DNA from: Aquificaceae bacterium
GTDB taxonomy: Bacteria > Aquificota > Aquificia > Aquificales > Aquificaceae
Assembly: GCA_025056375.1 (NCBI GenBank)
Contig: JANWWH010000001.1
Coordinates: forward strand, 2,545 to 66,544
DNA length: 64,000 nt
Direction: 5' to 3'
Position 1 is the stretch's first letter; each line of letters begins with the position of its first letter. Positions 25,453 to 36,600 of the stretch are shown here, piece after piece. The notes under the pieces were generated by a model. The model was not told the DNA's origin. It saw only the letters and a list, made by a program, of their open reading frames with translations, and did not search any database. The position numbers and the translations under genes are program-made.

Positions 25453-26031
25453 GTGTCCGCAAAGGGCAGGTTTTTAATCCTGAGAAGGTTCAGAGCTGGG
25501 GATGAGGACTTGATGCTGAAGGTTTACGGCTCCTGTGGTATGGCAAAGCTTCTCGTGCCTCGTGGCATCCTTCCACAGGAAGGCTATCTGGGTTACGCGG
25601 AGCCTTTTAACCTTCTAAAGCTGGTATACAGGCAGTCAGGAGACCTGCTCCTTCTCAAAGATGTGGTGCATGTGGAGTTTCTCTCTTATCTATCTCTCGA
25701 AAGCTACTCTGCTTATCTCTGGATGAGCTCGGTTGCCTCCTTTGTGGAAAGGTGGTTTCTTCAATATGAGCAGGAGCTCTTTGACATGACATTAAACTAC
25801 CTTACCCTCAGACCCAGAAACTCGGGAGTTTTCCTCCTCAGGTTTAAGCTGGAGTTTCTCAAGCGCATGGGTCTTTACAAGGAAGAGGTCTTTGAGGACG
25901 GTCTGAGGAAGATAGTGAGAGGAGTTATAGGGGAAGAAAACCCTAACAGACTTGAGAGGCTTAGGATATCAAAGGAAGCATTTTCAAAGCTTGAGGAGGC
26001 TATAGAAGCTTACCTCTCCGCATCTCTATAA
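25453..26031 (+). CDS. recO: DNA repair protein RecO-like
   Basis: N-terminal OB-fold pattern (ILRRFRAGDEDLMLKVYG...EPF). Confidence 0.6.
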   Translation: MSAKGRFLILRRFRAGDEDLMLKVYGSCGMAKLLVPRGILPQEGYLGYAEPFNLLKLVYRQSGDLLLLKDVVHVEFLSYLSLESYSAYLWMSSVASFVERWFLQYEQELFDMTLNYLTLRPRNSGVFLLRFKLEFLKRMGLYKEEVFEDGLRKIVRGVIGEENPNRLERLRISKEAFSKLEEAIEAYLSASL

Positions 26032-28796: not shown

Positions 28797-29114
28797 ATGG
28801 TTCAGGTGCCAGAAGTTGGACCTCAGGAAGCAAAGGATATGCTACAGAAAGAGGGCGTTGTCCTGCTCGATGTAAGAACCCCACAGGAACATCTGCAGTT
28901 GAGGATACCCAACTCTATTCTTATTCCCCTTGATGAGCTCAGGTATGCCTTCAAGGAGCTCTCAAGGGATAAAACTTATATAGTTTACTGCAGGAGTGGT
29001 GAAAGAAGTGCCTTTGCCACCTACTTTCTTAGACACATGGGTTATGAAGCATACAACTTAGCAGGGGGTATAATAGTCTGGCCCTACGAAAAGGAGTCAG
29101 GACCACCTAAATGA
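28797..29114 (+). CDS. Single-domain rhodanese
   Basis: LDVRTPQE, YCRSGERS, NLAGGI. Confidence 0.9.
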   Translation: MVQVPEVGPQEAKDMLQKEGVVLLDVRTPQEHLQLRIPNSILIPLDELRYAFKELSRDKTYIVYCRSGERSAFATYFLRHMGYEAYNLAGGIIVWPYEKESGPPK

Positions 29115-29854
29115 AAGGGTTTTTCCCCCTTCTTCTCCTTTTAACTGGTTGTGGCATAAAGGCGAACCCTGAAGTGCTAAAGCCTCCTGAAGTAGAGATT
29201 AGGAGGATAGGCGAATGGGTCTATGTGAGAAGCTTATCTGGTGAGATAAGGCTGAAGGATTTTGAAAGGGCGGGCTCTTACTGGAGAAGGGAAAGGAGAG
29301 AGGCTTTCTGCTTTTATGTGGAAAGGGTAGGCGGTAAGTCCGAGAGGTTCTGCGTAGGACCTGCTGTGGAAAGAAAACCCGCTCTTCACATCCTTGAGGA
29401 GAGCAACTCCGTAAGGGTCACCGCCTCAGGTTTTGAGGCTTACAGGGTCTATCCTCTCAAGGAGGGTCTTATGCAGCTTGAAGAGGGAAAGAGCTTCGGG
29501 GGAGTTTTTAACCTTGAGAGAGATTATCGGGAAAGATGCTACCTTCTTACCGCTCTTGAGGGAAGGGTGGAAAGCCCACCAGTGAGCTTCTGCGTAAAGC
29601 CAAAGGAGCCACCGCCCATAGAAGAGGTGGAAAAACTTGAGATAAGAGAGGGCAAAGAGAAGTTATACCTGGTGTGGTCTTATCAGAAGGATTACAAGGA
29701 GTTCGTCCTCTACATGGAAGGAAGGGAGCTGGGAAGGACAGTAGGCTTTTCCTTTGAAGTTCCAAAGCCAAAGGGTAGAGCCACCTTTAGTGTAAAGGTG
29801 ATAAGCCCTCTGGGTTTTGAGAGTAAGGGGTTGGAGGTCCTTTACAGTCCGTAG
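29111..29854 (+). CDS. Hypothetical lipoprotein with FN3-like C-terminal region
   Basis: Lipobox LLLTGC; C-terminal LYLVWS...FSVKVISPLGFES. Confidence 0.7.
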   Translation: MKGFFPLLLLLTGCGIKANPEVLKPPEVEIRRIGEWVYVRSLSGEIRLKDFERAGSYWRRERREAFCFYVERVGGKSERFCVGPAVERKPALHILEESNSVRVTASGFEAYRVYPLKEGLMQLEEGKSFGGVFNLERDYRERCYLLTALEGRVESPPVSFCVKPKEPPPIEEVEKLEIREGKEKLYLVWSYQKDYKEFVLYMEGRELGRTVGFSFEVPKPKGRATFSVKVISPLGFESKGLEVLYSP

Positions 29855-31347: not shown

Positions 31348-33699
31348 TTACGAAACTTCCCCGTAACCCGGTAGGGGTGCCATCGTGTAGAGCATCTCGT
31401 AGAGGAGAGCTCTTAGGGGCAGTAGGTATTCTTTTAGGTCTCTCTCTAAACGTAGGTAGGTGCCCCTCTCCTTGCTCCAGATGGGCAGCTTGCTGTAAGG
31501 CGTGGCAAAGGATTCGCTCTCATACATAGAAAGGGCTATAAGGGTGAAGATGAAAAGGCTCTTTCTCTCTGCGTAGACCTCCTCCTTTGACCAACCTATC
31601 TTCTCTGTGAAGAAAATCTGAAGGGCTGCGTGGTATATGCTGTCTTCAAAGTCTCTCTTTGCCTCTGCAGGCTTTATGGCTATGGCGGCTACATCCTTCT
31701 CAGCCTTTATGCCAAGCCTTTCCATGAGCCTGTTCATTTCCTGCGTGTATACCACGTAGCAACTTTCCTGTGCCTTGTCTGAAAGATAGGCAGTTTTTAG
31801 CTCGTCGTATTTTATAAAGAGGAGCTTACCCTCTAACTCCGAGGGCGTTCCGAGTCTATCCTCAATGCTGGCAAGGTAGGAGTCCTTAACCGCAGTTATT
31901 AGACAGAACCGCACATTCTTATACGTAAGCCTTTCCCTTATCCACTTCTCAAGGCGAGCCCCGTCTCCACCGTATCCACCCGAAAGAAGTATAAACTTGT
32001 CCTCTACATGCACCGTTGCTTGCTTTCCCTTTATCTTAATGCGGAAGGCTTCGTAAAGACCATGCCTCTCCCCTTCCTCGTTCATACTGCCAAACCTGTA
32101 GAAAAACTTAGGTGAAGGTCTCTCTATGACTGCGTAGACGGTAAGCTCCTCGGGTAGGTGGAAGCCGTCAAACTCAAACCTGAGGGTTTTTATGCCCTTG
32201 TAGAGGCTTATGACCATGTTTTTTATCGTTGCCTCAGGCTTTTCCCCAAGTAGACTTCTGAAAAACCGCTTCGTTATCGTTTGCACTGGCAGTCCGTAGT
32301 ATTCATATATGTGGTTCACCATGGGCCAAAGAGGATACCTACCCTCATCCTCTTTTAGCTCCGTATCAAGCAATAGAAGAATACCCTCTATGGTCTCTTT
32401 ACTTTGGTGAATAAATCTGGCGAGCCTGGCAGAGAAGTAACAAAGACTGTAGAGGAGTTCTTTAGAGTCTCCAGGCTTGTATACATTGCCCTTATCTGGC
32501 TTAACATCACCCTTTAGAAGTTTTAAAAACGCTTCCCTGCCAAAGAGGTCCTCAAACCTGTAAGGGCTTCCGTCTCCTTTTCTTTTGAGGTTTATTGTTA
32601 TGTTTCCTATATACTTCTGGAGGTTTTTGTTATCTTTTAGCGTCCTCTGGAGGAGGTCAAGTAGCTCCTTTAGCCCCAGGCTCCGCCCCCCTTCCTGCAG
32701 TTCAAACTCTCTCTCCGCAAAGACCCAAAGGTTTATCTCCTTGTCGGGCACGCAGAACTCTCCAAATGAAACCCAAACATCCTCTTTTTTAGGATTTCCC
32801 ATAAAAACTGCAAGCACCTTGTCACTTTCACCCTTCACCAGCCTTCTGAGCACCCTTTTCCAGTCTTTCCTGAGGCTTTTGAGCCTCTCTTCAGATAGTG
32901 CCTCATCCAAAAGCATCCTTATGTTTTCAAGACTTTTGCCCTCCTTCTTCAACACATACTCAAGGTCTTTTCTATAGTCCTCCCCCATGTCCTCTAAGAG
33001 CTCGCTCCATAGGTTCTTTTTTGTCTCTTCTTTCCTAAAGTAAAGACTGGCTCTGGAGATCACCACCGCGTTCATAAACCGGTCAAAGTTAATAGGAAAA
33101 AGGTAAAAGACCAGTTTAAAAAAGGGGTATTTGTGGAAGGCGCTGGGCAGTGTTTCTTCAAGGAGCTCCATAACGCCTTTCACTCTCCGCAAGTAGTCTT
33201 TAACCTCTTCGTCTTCCGTAAGAGATAGCCATATGTCTATAAGGTCTCTTCTTGCCCTCCACACCACCTCGCTACTCAAAGGTTCGTCCTCGTAGCCCTT
33301 TAGCCTGACAAACACAAGCCCTGCGGACTTTTCCATGTCAGAAGGAGGAGAAACCCTCAACTCCATCACAGACATCCTGTCCTTGCCCGTTCTCCTGTAA
33401 AAGCAAGTATCTTTTGATTTTTTGTGTTTCCTGAAAGGTCTTATCCACCTAACCACGTCCTCTCTCGGGTAGATAGCTTGACCCTCCGTTTGATGGTTTT
33501 TGTTTTTCAAAAAGCTTTCAAAGCTACTAAAGGCTTCTTGTTCTTTATTTATAATCTTGTGTAGGACACCCGCTAAGTTGTTCAGGTAGTCTTCTTCGTG
33601 GTTGAAAAAGACCCCCGCATACACGAAATCTCCACCTGCATACTCTCCCCTTGCAAAAAGCCCAAGCCTTGGGTCCTTTTCTCTACCCTTTATCTCCAT
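31348..33699 (-). CDS. Highly divergent Argonaute/PIWI-like protein, probably non-catalytic
   Basis: MID-like YYGLPVQTI...KNMVISLYKG (aa 467-502), RNase H-like strand VYAVIE, PIWI-like C-terminus LIALSMYESESFATPYSKLPIW; 783 aa; GGAGGT SD, overlaps the upstream gene. Confidence 0.6.
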   Translation of the reverse strand: MEIKGREKDPRLGLFARGEYAGGDFVYAGVFFNHEEDYLNNLAGVLHKIINKEQEAFSSFESFLKNKNHQTEGQAIYPREDVVRWIRPFRKHKKSKDTCFYRRTGKDRMSVMELRVSPPSDMEKSAGLVFVRLKGYEDEPLSSEVVWRARRDLIDIWLSLTEDEEVKDYLRRVKGVMELLEETLPSAFHKYPFFKLVFYLFPINFDRFMNAVVISRASLYFRKEETKKNLWSELLEDMGEDYRKDLEYVLKKEGKSLENIRMLLDEALSEERLKSLRKDWKRVLRRLVKGESDKVLAVFMGNPKKEDVWVSFGEFCVPDKEINLWVFAEREFELQEGGRSLGLKELLDLLQRTLKDNKNLQKYIGNITINLKRKGDGSPYRFEDLFGREAFLKLLKGDVKPDKGNVYKPGDSKELLYSLCYFSARLARFIHQSKETIEGILLLLDTELKEDEGRYPLWPMVNHIYEYYGLPVQTITKRFFRSLLGEKPEATIKNMVISLYKGIKTLRFEFDGFHLPEELTVYAVIERPSPKFFYRFGSMNEEGERHGLYEAFRIKIKGKQATVHVEDKFILLSGGYGGDGARLEKWIRERLTYKNVRFCLITAVKDSYLASIEDRLGTPSELEGKLLFIKYDELKTAYLSDKAQESCYVVYTQEMNRLMERLGIKAEKDVAAIAIKPAEAKRDFEDSIYHAALQIFFTEKIGWSKEEVYAERKSLFIFTLIALSMYESESFATPYSKLPIWSKERGTYLRLERDLKEYLLPLRALLYEMLYTMAPLPGYGEVS

Positions 33700-36600
33700 C
33701 CTCTACCTCCAGCAGTTCTCTTAAAAATTCTACGGGAAAACGGGCAAAGCGTCCGCTGAGCACTTCCCTGTAAGGATAGTCCTCACCAAGGGGTATGCAG
33801 GCGTATTCCTTCTTGGAAACTTCGTCATTTAAACAGCGCGTCCAGAACTCAAGCTTGCCCCCCATAACCCTTGCACCGCCCCTCCCTACCCTACCACCCA
33901 CCTTAAACCTTATCAAAGGGTCCTCCTTGTAGAGCACCTGCTTTGTAAATACCAGCGAGTATACGGGCAGAAGAATGGGCACTTCATACCCTTCGCGGGG
34001 TGCAACGCTGTTTATAAAGTGTCCAACTTCCTCGGACAGCTCTTCGTTGTGTCCCTTTAGCACTTCCTTCAACTCTCTGTAGAGAATACTGGCTTCTTTT
34101 CTCTTCTCGTTGTCAAAGGTAAGATGGAGCTTTGCCCTCTCAAGGAGGATATAAGGGTGGTAGTAAGTTACCCTTGAGAGGTTTTTTGGTATATCCTCCG
34201 TGTATATGTCCACTGCAGAAAGCAGAACATCTCTTAACCGTCTGAGCTTTTCCTTTATTACCCCATCCTTTTCCATTAATTGTATGTCCTCAAGAAAGGT
34301 AACTACCGCCTCAAGCTGAGAGACCTTGTTTTGAGCGTAGACAGTTTTGTGTTGAGCGGGCACAGGCACCAGCACCCTCCCCTCCTTACTCTTTAAAAAC
34401 TGCTCAACTATGCGCACCACCACCCGGTCAAGGTCAATCTTCTGCTTTAGATATTCCACCTCGTAGATGAGCCTTATGACCTCTCTATCCGCATGCTCAT
34501 GCAAGCTAAGTATGTTGTCTATTACATACTCCGGCACCTCTTCAAAAAGCAGATACACTATATGGAGATGCTTTGGTCTTTTCTCCGTCTTTTCGTCACC
34601 CCTTGCTCTCGAGATAGCTTGGATTACCTCCACCAAGTTGTTTTCCAACCCCCAGTCGGACACCACTATGTATATGTGGTCCAAAGGTTTGTGCTCTCGA
34701 GAAAAGTCAAGCCCACGAGAGACGGAGGAAGTGCCCAATATGATGTCTTCCTTACCCTTGCTTATGTCTTCCTGGCTCTTCCTTGAGCTGGCAGTGGCTA
34801 CCAGCGTGCTAATACCCTGTTCCTTCAGTAGGTGGGATAGATGAGCTATAGCGTCCTTGTCTTGGAGGAAAACAAAAGCGGTGCTTTCATCTCTGTTGGT
34901 AAAGGTCTCTTTTATGTATTCCACCAGCTTGAGGTAGTCTTCTTTCTTTTCAAAGTCTTTCACCCTTAGAAACTTTCTGTAGACCCACAGCTCCTTTGAA
35001 GGGAAGCCGTGCTTTGAGTATATGGAAAGGGGCACATCTCCATAAGAGACCTCCAACTCTGGCAGGAAGTTGCACAGAACCACTGCCTCTGGCACGACCT
35101 CATACTTTTCGTATTCCTGTAGGATACCCTTCAAGAGTTCTGGCGTGTAGCCGTTGGCGTCAAAGAGATAAAGGTTTACCTTGCCACCCTTATTACGGAA
35201 TTTGCGGGCAAGCTCAAAAAGCTCACTTATGGCAAAAATACCATTGCTAAAGCCCAGAAACTCATCGAGGATAAAGTGCAGTGTGTAGTTATCATAGATG
35301 CGAGGGGTAAGGAACTCTTTCATGTGTCTTGTGGTGCTACCCCTACCTGTCTCCACAATAGACTGAAGGGTGGCAAAACCCCATATCTGCTCGTGCTTCT
35401 CCGAGGCTTTTTTTATGCCCTCTACCATCTTCTGAAGTATGCCCTTACGGGTAGAATTAGGCTCAAAGTAGTCTCCCTTGTGAAGCAGGGAGTGAGAGCT
35501 CTTCTTCTCTGGTCTTCCAAGTAGGGCTATGCCATTGCGAGACTCAATCTTTTTCTTTACTGCCTCATACTCTTTCTCCACTATCCTTTTTCTGGTGGCA
35601 AAGTAGAGGACTATGTGCCTTCCGGGCATGTTAAGTATGGCATTTCTCACATTGGAAGTTTTTCCGCTGCCAGCGGACTGAAGGAGGGCAAGGGCTTTGC
35701 AAGTTTGCGACCCTTTTACAAAATCCTCTACCCTTTTCCTTACATCCTCCCTCGCCCCATCTATGTGGTCCACGTCCAGCTTTTTCTTTTCTTTCTGTAT
35801 TTCCTCTATAGTCCTTAAGAGCCTTTCCTTTTCCTTCGTGTATTCTTCTTTAAGTCTTGGACTTCGAACTGGCGAAGGCTCGTCCGCCGCCTTGTAGCTC
35901 CAGCTTCTTGACTTCAGGCTTTTGTAGAGCTCTTTTATGCCTTCTTGATAACCTTTTAGGGCTTCTCTGTTCTCTAGGTTAAACCTCACCCTAAGAGACT
36001 CCTGAAGGGGATAGACGAGTTCAAGGACTACTTCCCTTACTGGGTCTTTTTCTTCTACCAGATAGTCTACAGCGTAGCTAAGGACCTGAAGAAAGCCCTT
36101 TATTTCCACGAAGACGTCCTTGAGCCTGAGCATCTCTTCCTTGGTTTTCATGAGCTTTTCCAGAAACTTTTCCAGAGAGAGTTGACCGAGAGAGAGGTTT
36201 ATGGGGACGCCATAGTTCACAAAGGGTATGTATATGCTCCTAACCTTTTCCTGAGGGACATTTTTGCTAATGGCTATGTCCTTTATCTTGTTGGTGAGCC
36301 CCGATGCCTTAAAGTCCACCACATAGAGAACTTCCTTTTCAAGAAACATAAGGTCTGCGTTCTTCCACACTACCTCCGAGTGCTCCTCGCTCATGCTGAA
36401 CTTCTTTAGAACGACATCCTCGTGCTGAGCCCCATATAAAAGACCTGCGGAGTAACCTAAGAAAAAAGCTACTTTTGTATAGTTCTCCACTGCACCCTCC
36501 GGCGTAGTATCAAATCCGGAGACTCTCAGCTCTGGCGGAAACTCCCCTGAGAGGGAGTAGGGCATCTTCAGCTTTATGCTTTCAAAGAAGCTCTTAACCT

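Follow-up and report, generated by a model that had tools for sequence, protein, structure and literature searches.

Among the defences against plasmids and phages, systems that couple an Argonaute-type sensor to a helicase-nuclease (DdmDE, ApsAB and PIWI-RE) form a class that is still young and of mechanistic importance. Here we describe a gene pair of a similar kind, located in a 64,000-nucleotide (nt) stretch of contig JANWWH010000001.1 (the window) from a 1.34-Mb metagenome-assembled genome (MAG) of an Aquificaceae bacterium. The pair comprises the gene for a 783-amino-acid (aa) protein, P0001, for which an earlier reading of the DNA letters (the original prediction) had proposed remote MID and PIWI signatures, and the upstream gene for a 1026-aa putative nuclease-helicase, P0002.

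The closest described systems differ from one another in how the sensor and the effector are built. In DdmDE (Vibrio cholerae, Lactobacillus casei), the helicase-nuclease DdmD is paired with DdmE, an inactive 'long-C' prokaryotic Argonaute (pAgo) whose PIWI domain is without the catalytic DEDX tetrad and whose non-canonical N-lobe is without a true PAZ domain; this guide-directed sensor passes its target to the processive helicase-nuclease (bioRxiv 10.1101/2024.05.10.593530; PMC13618286). ApsAB of E. coli ST38, for which antiplasmid activity is proven, combines the nuclease/helicase ApsA (~1570 aa, nuclease C-terminal) with ApsB, a sequence-orphan Argonaute-like protein seen by structure prediction. 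ApsB is reported to have no recognisable PIWI RNase H fold, to keep the lysine of the Y-x3-K motif and to rely on a conserved MID 5'-end motif that is essential for function (PMC11096173). The pPIWI-RE system consists of a restriction-type nuclease (REase), a DinG-like helicase and a PIWI-RE protein, the N-terminal half of which is helix-rich and non-PAZ (Burroughs et al. 2013; PMC10991935). Finally, PMC13535254 describes long-B and short pAgos as PIWI sensors without catalytic activity, dependent on a nuclease or another effector associated with them.

With respect to the locus studied here, we think it likely that P0001 is a sequence-divergent, structurally genuine Argonaute-fold sensor, that P0002 is its co-translated effector, and that the two form a guide-directed system. 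We regard it as a probable thermophilic counterpart in kind, so far undescribed, of DdmDE, ApsAB and PIWI-RE, guide-directed defence systems that destroy DNA. This reading draws on fold-level identity, conserved pocket residues, strict gene pairing and the accessory behaviour of the cassette. The features of both genes are collected in Table 1.

Table 1. Features of the Argonaute-like gene and its partner gene, in window positions
Feature	Position	Strand	Basis
Gene for the 783-aa predicted Argonaute-fold protein P0001	31348..33699	-	open reading frame (ORF) and translation, AlphaFold2 (AF2) model, Foldseek
PIWI-like RNase H-fold domain, aa 516-783	31351..32154	-	DSSP of the model, conservation, lower-ranked NurA/RNase H-like fold matches
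MID-like domain, aa 433-515, putative 5'-end pocket Y455 W458 Q473 T474 K493 N494 K501 K504	32155..32403	-	invariance, spacing, hhalign
Motif segment of the original prediction, aa 467-502	32194..32301	-	
N-terminal half, aa 1-432, helix-rich, with beta module 295-341	32404..33699	-	secondary structure of the model
Shine-Dalgarno sequence GGAGGT of the P0001 gene, within the end of the helicase gene	33705..33710	-	translational coupling
Gene for the 1026-aa putative nuclease-helicase P0002	33683..36763	-	AF2, Foldseek, Helicase_C
C-terminal domain of P0002, aa 741-1026 (~285 aa)	33686..34543	-	strongly conserved
Superfamily 2 (SF2) helicase core of P0002: motif I AGSGKT (K368), II D500-E-F, VI Q715..R719-A-R721	34544..35788	-	
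PD-(D/E)xK (RecB/Cas4-type) nuclease-like domain of P0002, D137, D150-x-K152, Q226-xxx-Y230	35978..36502	-	motif level

Predicted fold, putative pocket and family of P0001

The AF2 model of P0001, built from a 23-sequence alignment of the core family, has a mean pLDDT of 83.7 and a pTM of 0.86, and all five models reach a pLDDT of at least 79. In a Foldseek comparison with 350,542 chains of the Protein Data Bank (PDB), ranks 1-43 were all Argonaute/PIWI proteins, the top 41 with a probability of 1.0. The best match was RsAgo (E=5.6e-8), and the others included AfAgo/AfPiwi, the SPARDA and SPARTA short pAgos, TtAgo, KmAgo, MpAgo and CpAgo, as well as the eukaryotic human Ago2, yeast Ago and QDE-2 MID-PIWI. 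The RNase H-like nucleases NurA and TM1739 occupied ranks 44-45 (E>0.03), and DdmE (9ezy_B) followed at rank 48 (E=0.07, probability 0.14); a fold search against a library of viral protein models gave no match. The arrangement that defines the superfamily, a Rossmann-like MID domain followed by an RNase H-fold PIWI domain, is seen in P0001 both in the Foldseek matches and in the strand/helix order of residues 518-634. These results bear out the proposal of an Argonaute-like protein with MID and PIWI domains, and the predicted structure places its motifs in an Argonaute fold and not in an unrelated one. Normalised by target, the TM-score is 0.46 for the MID-PIWI-only AfAgo; normalised by query, it goes from 0.27 with MID-PIWI-only targets to 0.30 with full-length RsAgo. 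From this pattern, it is the C-terminal MID-PIWI lobe that carries the fold match, with the N-terminal 430 residues adding little.

Conservation within the family falls on the same lobe. An extended alignment of 28 sequences, reaching down to 21% identity, contains 12 invariant columns, 10 of which lie within residues 455-504 (Y455, W458, Y465, P471, Q473, K493, N494, S498, K501 and K504). For comparison we used 12 canonical pAgos taken from other Aquificota genomes, one of which we take to be Aquifex aeolicus Ago (AaAgo). Their pocket positions are Y439, K443, Q454, N472 and K480, ahead of the catalytic D502, and they are spaced Y439 +15 Q454 +18 N472 +8 K480 +22 D502; the corresponding series in the P0001 family runs W458 +15 Q473(T474) +21 N494 +7 K501 +25 E526. 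In terms of the canonical 5'-end pocket motif, Y-K-Q-T-N-K (PMC6299218), the family keeps the Q, T, N and last K. The stacking Tyr is replaced by an invariant Trp (W458), with an invariant Tyr (Y455) three residues before it, and the first pocket Lys is missing, position 462 (N462 in P0001) not being conserved, in keeping with the earlier remark that the Y-x3-K lysine is not evident. In profile-profile alignment, the best local stretch pairs P0001 456-500 with AaAgo 437-478 (hhalign, overall P=0.24). Because the invariant columns, the canonical spacing and this best local stretch coincide, the MID observation is real and non-random. The segment flagged originally, residues 467-502, does read YYGLPVQTITKRFFRSLLGEKPEATIKNMVISLYKG and probably marks the functional heart of the P0001 family, and the suspected 5'-phosphate pocket pattern proves to be both the family's most conserved part and its best local match to canonical pAgos.

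The P0001 ORF is open over 783 aa from an ATG start that is preceded by GGAGG at a distance of 5 nt. Scans with Pfam, NCBIfam and PADLOC gave no meaningful match for P0001, and Pfam matched none of the 28 family members meaningfully. A word-indexed search of 5.8 billion proteins returned 26 relatives, and an exhaustive phmmer search of 1.84 billion cluster representatives returned 38. Searching the 5.8-billion-protein set with a profile of the extended alignment added no further relatives, and the family profile had no real match among PDB sequences. The description of P0001 as an orphan is right in that no curated family matches it, but a small family of its own exists. Where they are named, its relatives carry the labels Aquificaceae, Thermocrinis, Pampinifervens or hot-spring MAG; the pair is also carried by a congener of the window genome (G048), the coordinates of which match the Pampinifervens florentissimum chromosome CP048795.1. 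Public records call the Argonaute-like product 'hypothetical protein' and its partner 'helicase', and our literature search found no paper describing the P0001 family. The MAG labels of members P0025, P0140, P0048, P0073, P0100 and P0052 are archaeal or WOR-3 (Ca. Parvarchaeum, Thermofilaceae, Micrarchaeaceae, Bathyarchaeia), at identity levels that resemble those of Aquificaceae members. These are probably mis-binned hot-spring contigs, with horizontal transfer as another possible origin.

The partner gene and its locus

Decisive context that the original prediction had left out is an obligatory nuclease-helicase partner, the gene of which overlaps the start of the P0001 gene by 17 nt at its 3' end. 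The AF2 model of P0002 (pLDDT 85) is matched by Foldseek to the SF2 helicases MrfA, UvrB, Ski2-like, Brr2/Mtr4, RecQ and Hel308, with DdmD, Cas3 and DinG outside the top 50 matches; Helicase_C is found in 28/28 homologs, and PADLOC gave no DdmD-type match. Both the nuclease and the helicase motifs are invariant across these 28 homologs, and the putative nuclease residues D137, D150, K152, Q226 and Y230 sit on an alpha-beta-beta-beta-alpha core in the model. The C-terminal domain has further invariant positions (for example G960-R-G, Y996-P-Y and S1003-G-R-F) and no family match in Pfam, and the Argonaute-like protein may dock on it. Its conserved stretches read GRVGRGGA and YACIPLGEDYPY.EVLSGRFA.FP.

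The two genes are strictly paired. In a survey of 90 Aquificaceae genomes, both were present in 34 of the 37 carriers and adjacent in all 34, with gene junctions that are tight in the relatives too, and neither gene was found in 53/90. The Argonaute-like gene stood alone in 2/90, as a decayed remnant (G052) and as a contig-end fragment (G033), and a distant helicase was alone in 1/90 (G024) by single-sequence search. In that last genome, however, the 1068-aa helicase adjoins an 813-aa protein (locus L031, G024:C25, 1832-7476, minus strand) that matches the family profile with 99.6% probability (E=9e-24, 22% identity). Since L031 escaped the single-sequence search, the family is broader than the 36/90 tally, and since the G024 helicase precedes a family-profile match, the pairing extends to subfamilies at 22-28% identity.

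The pair behaves as an accessory cassette. Within the genus of the window genome, it sits in L001 and L005 exactly between thiF/moeB and a tRNA_bind gene, and at the empty site of G054 and G057 thiF is directly followed by the tRNA_bind gene (10 nt apart in G054), the dnaE-ODP-thiF synteny being intact. Between the window and L005, identity is 91% for ThiF, 93% for ODP and 85% for DnaE; at the cassette it is 43-45% for the helicase and the Argonaute-like protein. Internal stops occur in the cassette copies of G064, G066 and G076, and remnants alone are left in G052. A unit that is present or missing as a whole, that decays and that diverges very fast between slowly changing neighbours behaves as conflict genes typically do.

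Across genera, the cassette was present in 19/25 genomes of genus g1, with one pAgo fragment, and in 7/7 genomes of genus g4, with no pAgo; genus g2 had pAgo in 5/8 genomes and one distant cassette. On these counts, Aquificota genera appear for the most part to carry either canonical Piwi-domain pAgos or the cassette, a pattern that is confounded by phylogeny. Two ORFs near the cassette, both without a Pfam match at E<=1e-5, lie at 25453-26031 (+; 192 aa) and 29111-29854 (+; 247 aa).

Several observations weigh against the interpretation of the pair as an Argonaute-based defence system. There is no sequence-level link of P0001 to any Argonaute family tried: the hhalign comparison of the family profile with the 12 canonical Aquificota pAgos falls short of significance (P=0.24), and Pfam Piwi (PF02171) matched 0/28 members at E<=10 and nothing in a six-frame search of the genome, with the controls TtAgo and MjAgo detected. 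The profile check that the original prediction had proposed came out negative, with the Piwi and pPIWI_RE models (MID_pPIWI_RE among them) matching none of the 28 members. The TM-scores are modest (0.24-0.47), and individual pocket and tetrad residues are assigned from the order of the strands in the model and from spacing. The nuclease assignment of P0002 rests on motifs and secondary structure: no Pfam nuclease family matched its homologs, and the helicase core dominated the fold search. Several invariant Glu and His residues in the PIWI domain leave room for an unconventional active site. Relatives of P0001 were not found in the viral contigs searched. Finally, the surroundings are purely housekeeping (panC, glgA, nadC, accC, thiF, dnaE), and the cassette neighbourhood in the window contains no defence island, integrase or transposase.

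This setting beside dnaE and thiF, together with a fixed locus in most genomes of two genera and repair helicases (MrfA, UvrB) as the best fold matches of P0002, would suit a housekeeping module for DNA repair or replication completion, not an immune one (compare TtAgo decatenation, PsPIWI-RE in cell division and MrfA-type helicases). We consider this unlikely: the cassette is absent from more than half of the surveyed genomes, including 99%-complete congeners with a clean empty site, some of its copies are pseudogenised, and its sequence changes much more quickly than that of its flanks, as a core repair gene would seldom do.

A further possibility is that P0001 is a highly diverged pPIWI-RE member in which the restriction-type nuclease has become fused to the N-terminus of the helicase. 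The two systems have the same parts in the same order (nuclease, helicase, PIWI), overlapping genes and near-identical sizes, with 1023/783 aa for helicase and PIWI-RE in our control operon L019 (REase 351 aa) and 1026/783 aa here, and helix-rich, non-PAZ N-terminal halves are also a property of PIWI-RE proteins (PMC10991935). Nonetheless, RNaseH_pPIWI_RE, MID_pPIWI_RE, pPIWI_RE_X and pPIWI_RE_REase matched 0/28 members at E<=10, although the control was detected by the Pfam pPIWI_RE models at E values of 1.7e-17 to 1.9e-6 (PF13032, PF18157 and PF13111 at E<=0.01; pPIWI_RE_X scoring 27.7 bits, short of the curated cut-off at 30.5), and no pPIWI_RE model matched anywhere in the whole genome. 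By hhalign, the probability is 0.4% against the control PIWI-RE and 0.1% for helicase against helicase, with a PIWI-RE profile that is thin, the gene having been found in 1/300 genomes class-wide and 3/201 family-wide. Moreover, nothing in P0001 corresponds, at similar spacing, to the eponymous R639 and E718 of PsPIWI-RE; its R753 and E768 lie 15 residues apart. Membership in pPIWI-RE is therefore distinctly doubtful. As an aside on the control, the PIWI-RE gene 3' of the DinG-like helicase is broken in L020/L024 (Stutzerimonas kunmingensis NZ_FORS01000005.1; ORFs of 375, 286 and 277 aa), and L019, near-identical to that locus, has the intact 783-aa gene.

PIWI-domain catalytic residues and the N-terminal half

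The four peptides cited in the original prediction for the PIWI part are present as quoted (LTVYAVIE, 519-526; RFCLITAVKD, 597-606; LLFIKYD, 626-632; LIALSMYESESFATPYSKLPIW, 720-741). In the model, the elements run beta1 (518-528), beta2 (547-557), beta3 (560-572), alpha1 (578-591), beta4 (596-602), helices and beta5 (626-634), which is the order of RNase H. Judged by spacing and topology, E526 falls at the first of the catalytic positions: all 23 core members have it, as do >=90% of the extended alignment, and the 813-aa L031 protein, which is the most divergent member, retains it. The other positions of the tetrad are degenerate. The glutamate-finger loop (573-578) is variable, the end of beta4 (RFC[LF]IT[AS]; T602/A603) is without an acid, and the fourth position (744-746) is not conserved under the preferred mapping of 'YESESF..KLP' onto '..NYSS..KLPA..Y(S/A)(D/H)'. 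No Asp in residues 433-783 is conserved at >=90%, the conserved acids of the PIWI part being E526, E550, E633, E699, E727, E729 and E768. By comparison, the 12 canonical Aquificota pAgos keep D502, D571 and D683 (one with His at 683). Two other mappings were set aside: KPA...YH690 as the source of the fourth residue, in favour of helix 706-727 with K737-L-P, and the global hhalign mapping (H514 and E566 as catalytic), which skips the RNase H helix between beta3 and beta4 and leaves a K-to-D spacing of only 13.

Because no Asp is conserved, the beta4 end is without an acid and the finger region is variable, P0001 has, on this model-based mapping, quite probably lost slicing. The degenerate tetrad of the original prediction is thus supported, and no intact DEDX tetrad, which would have spoken against it, is seen in the family alignment; as for its term 'slicer-dead', the DEDX residues are indeed absent, and the loss of slicing is what we infer from this. 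A PIWI domain that still cuts the target through a Glu/His site, with P0002 in an assisting role such as guide generation or target unwinding, seems quite unlikely. E526 stands at the right place for such a site, E550, E633, H690 and E729 show little or no variation in the core family, and D/E is frequent at position 606, just past beta4. However, the L031 subfamily has other residues in place of E633 and H690 (it retains E526, S728-E729, R753 and E768), two members have Arg at position 606, and, with no Asp conserved and the finger region variable, a lone invariant carboxylate cannot hold two metals. In DdmE, the C-terminal K674 and E678 help to build a 5'-phosphate/metal site (bioRxiv 10.1101/2024.05.10.593530), and we speculate that R753 and E768 might by analogy do so in P0001.

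The N-terminal half is the least conserved region of the protein, with 39% mean identity compared to 51-53% elsewhere, and G313 and E329 are the sole invariant residues outside MID in the extended family. They belong to a motif in the beta module, S311-[YF]-G313 ... E329 (VSFGEFCVP...NLWVFAE; aa 304-330, window 32710-32790), which could be a 3'-end or wedge element. The suggestion that these ~430 residues are non-canonical is compatible with our results, and the small rise in query-normalised TM-score with a full-length target stops short of proving it.

One sister subfamily appears to be split. At L028 (G041:C28, 6201-8766, minus strand), a 292-aa ORF matching family residues 1-240 (hhalign probability 89.7%) overlaps a 579-aa MID-PIWI ORF, and a 1060-aa helicase gene lies downstream of the MID-PIWI gene, not upstream. 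Several database members are also ~578-633 aa long, which suggests that the short split form is genuine, a frameshift being the other possible cause; the arrangement recalls short pAgos with APAZ partners.

That P0001 has some unrelated fold, and resembles Argonaute only because its AF2 model came from a shallow alignment, as the 23-sequence input, modest TM-scores and missing sequence-method support might suggest, is very improbable given the confidence of all five models, 43 consecutive top matches from one superfamily and an independent conservation pattern that falls exactly on the MID pocket motif.

Proposed mechanism and comparison with known systems

Taken together, these observations are consistent with a guide-directed sensor that hands its target to a nuclease-helicase. 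Judged by which residues are conserved and how the motif is spaced, the 5' end of a short guide would be anchored in the MID pocket (W458/Y455 for stacking, with Q473, T474, N494 and K501, together with K493 and K504). The guide would pair with complementary invader DNA, which the PIWI domain, without DEDX carboxylates, would not slice. By analogy with DdmDE and ApsAB, target-bound P0001 may recruit or de-repress P0002, leading to unwinding and processive degradation of the DNA. The role of the pair would be defence against plasmids or viruses of hot-spring Aquificaceae, as the presence/absence pattern of the cassette, its pseudogenes and its ~45% allele identity between housekeeping flanks that are 85-93% identical suggest.

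We see about an even chance that P0001 represents a hitherto unrecognised clade, restricted to thermophiles of hot springs, whose members are true Argonaute-fold proteins with a non-canonical W...QT...N...K pocket, a new N-lobe and a helicase-nuclease coupling gained independently of DdmDE, ApsAB and PIWI-RE. If so, 'PIWI sensor plus helicase-nuclease' would be a recurrently evolved immune architecture, and the pair would constitute a naturally thermostable, guide-programmable, processive DNA-degrading system, possibly with unusual guide chemistry. The family was missed by every sequence model tried, yet its fold is nearer to canonical pAgos than that of DdmE, which extends the known range of the superfamily and indicates that sequence-based pAgo censuses overlook whole clades. 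Since the hosts are hot-spring thermophiles, the proteins are probably thermostable, which lends them practical interest as programmable DNA-targeting reagents, and the altered 5'-end pocket makes guide preference directly testable.

The pair is analogous to DdmDE, ApsAB and PIWI-RE, with no detectable homology to PIWI-RE and a weak fold match to DdmE. The nearest structures to P0001 are the long-B and short pAgos (RsAgo, AfAgo, BPAN, SPARTA/SPARDA). Unlike P0001, these match Pfam Piwi, their pockets are of the YK/HK/RK type and they use effectors other than helicase fusions; many act by abortive infection, not by processive degradation. The likeness to pPIWI-RE in parts, order and size is offset by a nuclease that is fused to the helicase, with no separate REase (the upstream neighbour of P0002 is thiF/moeB), by a helicase that resembles MrfA, UvrB and Ski2-type enzymes and not DinG specifically, and by the catalytic Asp residues D525 and D610, which PsPIWI-RE keeps and the P0001 family does not. 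ApsB is set apart by description: unlike it, P0001 shows a MID-PIWI fold, with Trp in place of Tyr and without the Y-x3-K lysine. The effectors are also built differently, the nuclease being C-terminal in ApsA and, by its motifs, N-terminal in P0002.

With DdmDE, the pair shares a two-gene operon in which the helicase-nuclease gene comes first and the Argonaute-fold gene second (bioRxiv 10.1101/2024.05.10.593530; PMC13618286), a PIWI domain without DEDX and, probably, a non-canonical N-lobe. Membership in DdmDE was rejected, given the rank of DdmE in the fold search, the nuclease-then-helicase order of P0002 and the blank PADLOC result. Specifically, DdmE is a weak fold match to P0001, unlike canonical pAgos (E ~1e-7), and the P0002 nuclease is N-terminal, unlike the C-terminal nuclease of DdmD. 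An effector whose domains run in the reverse order, along with the split and long versions in sister subfamilies, offers material for comparing how PIWI sensors recruit their effectors.

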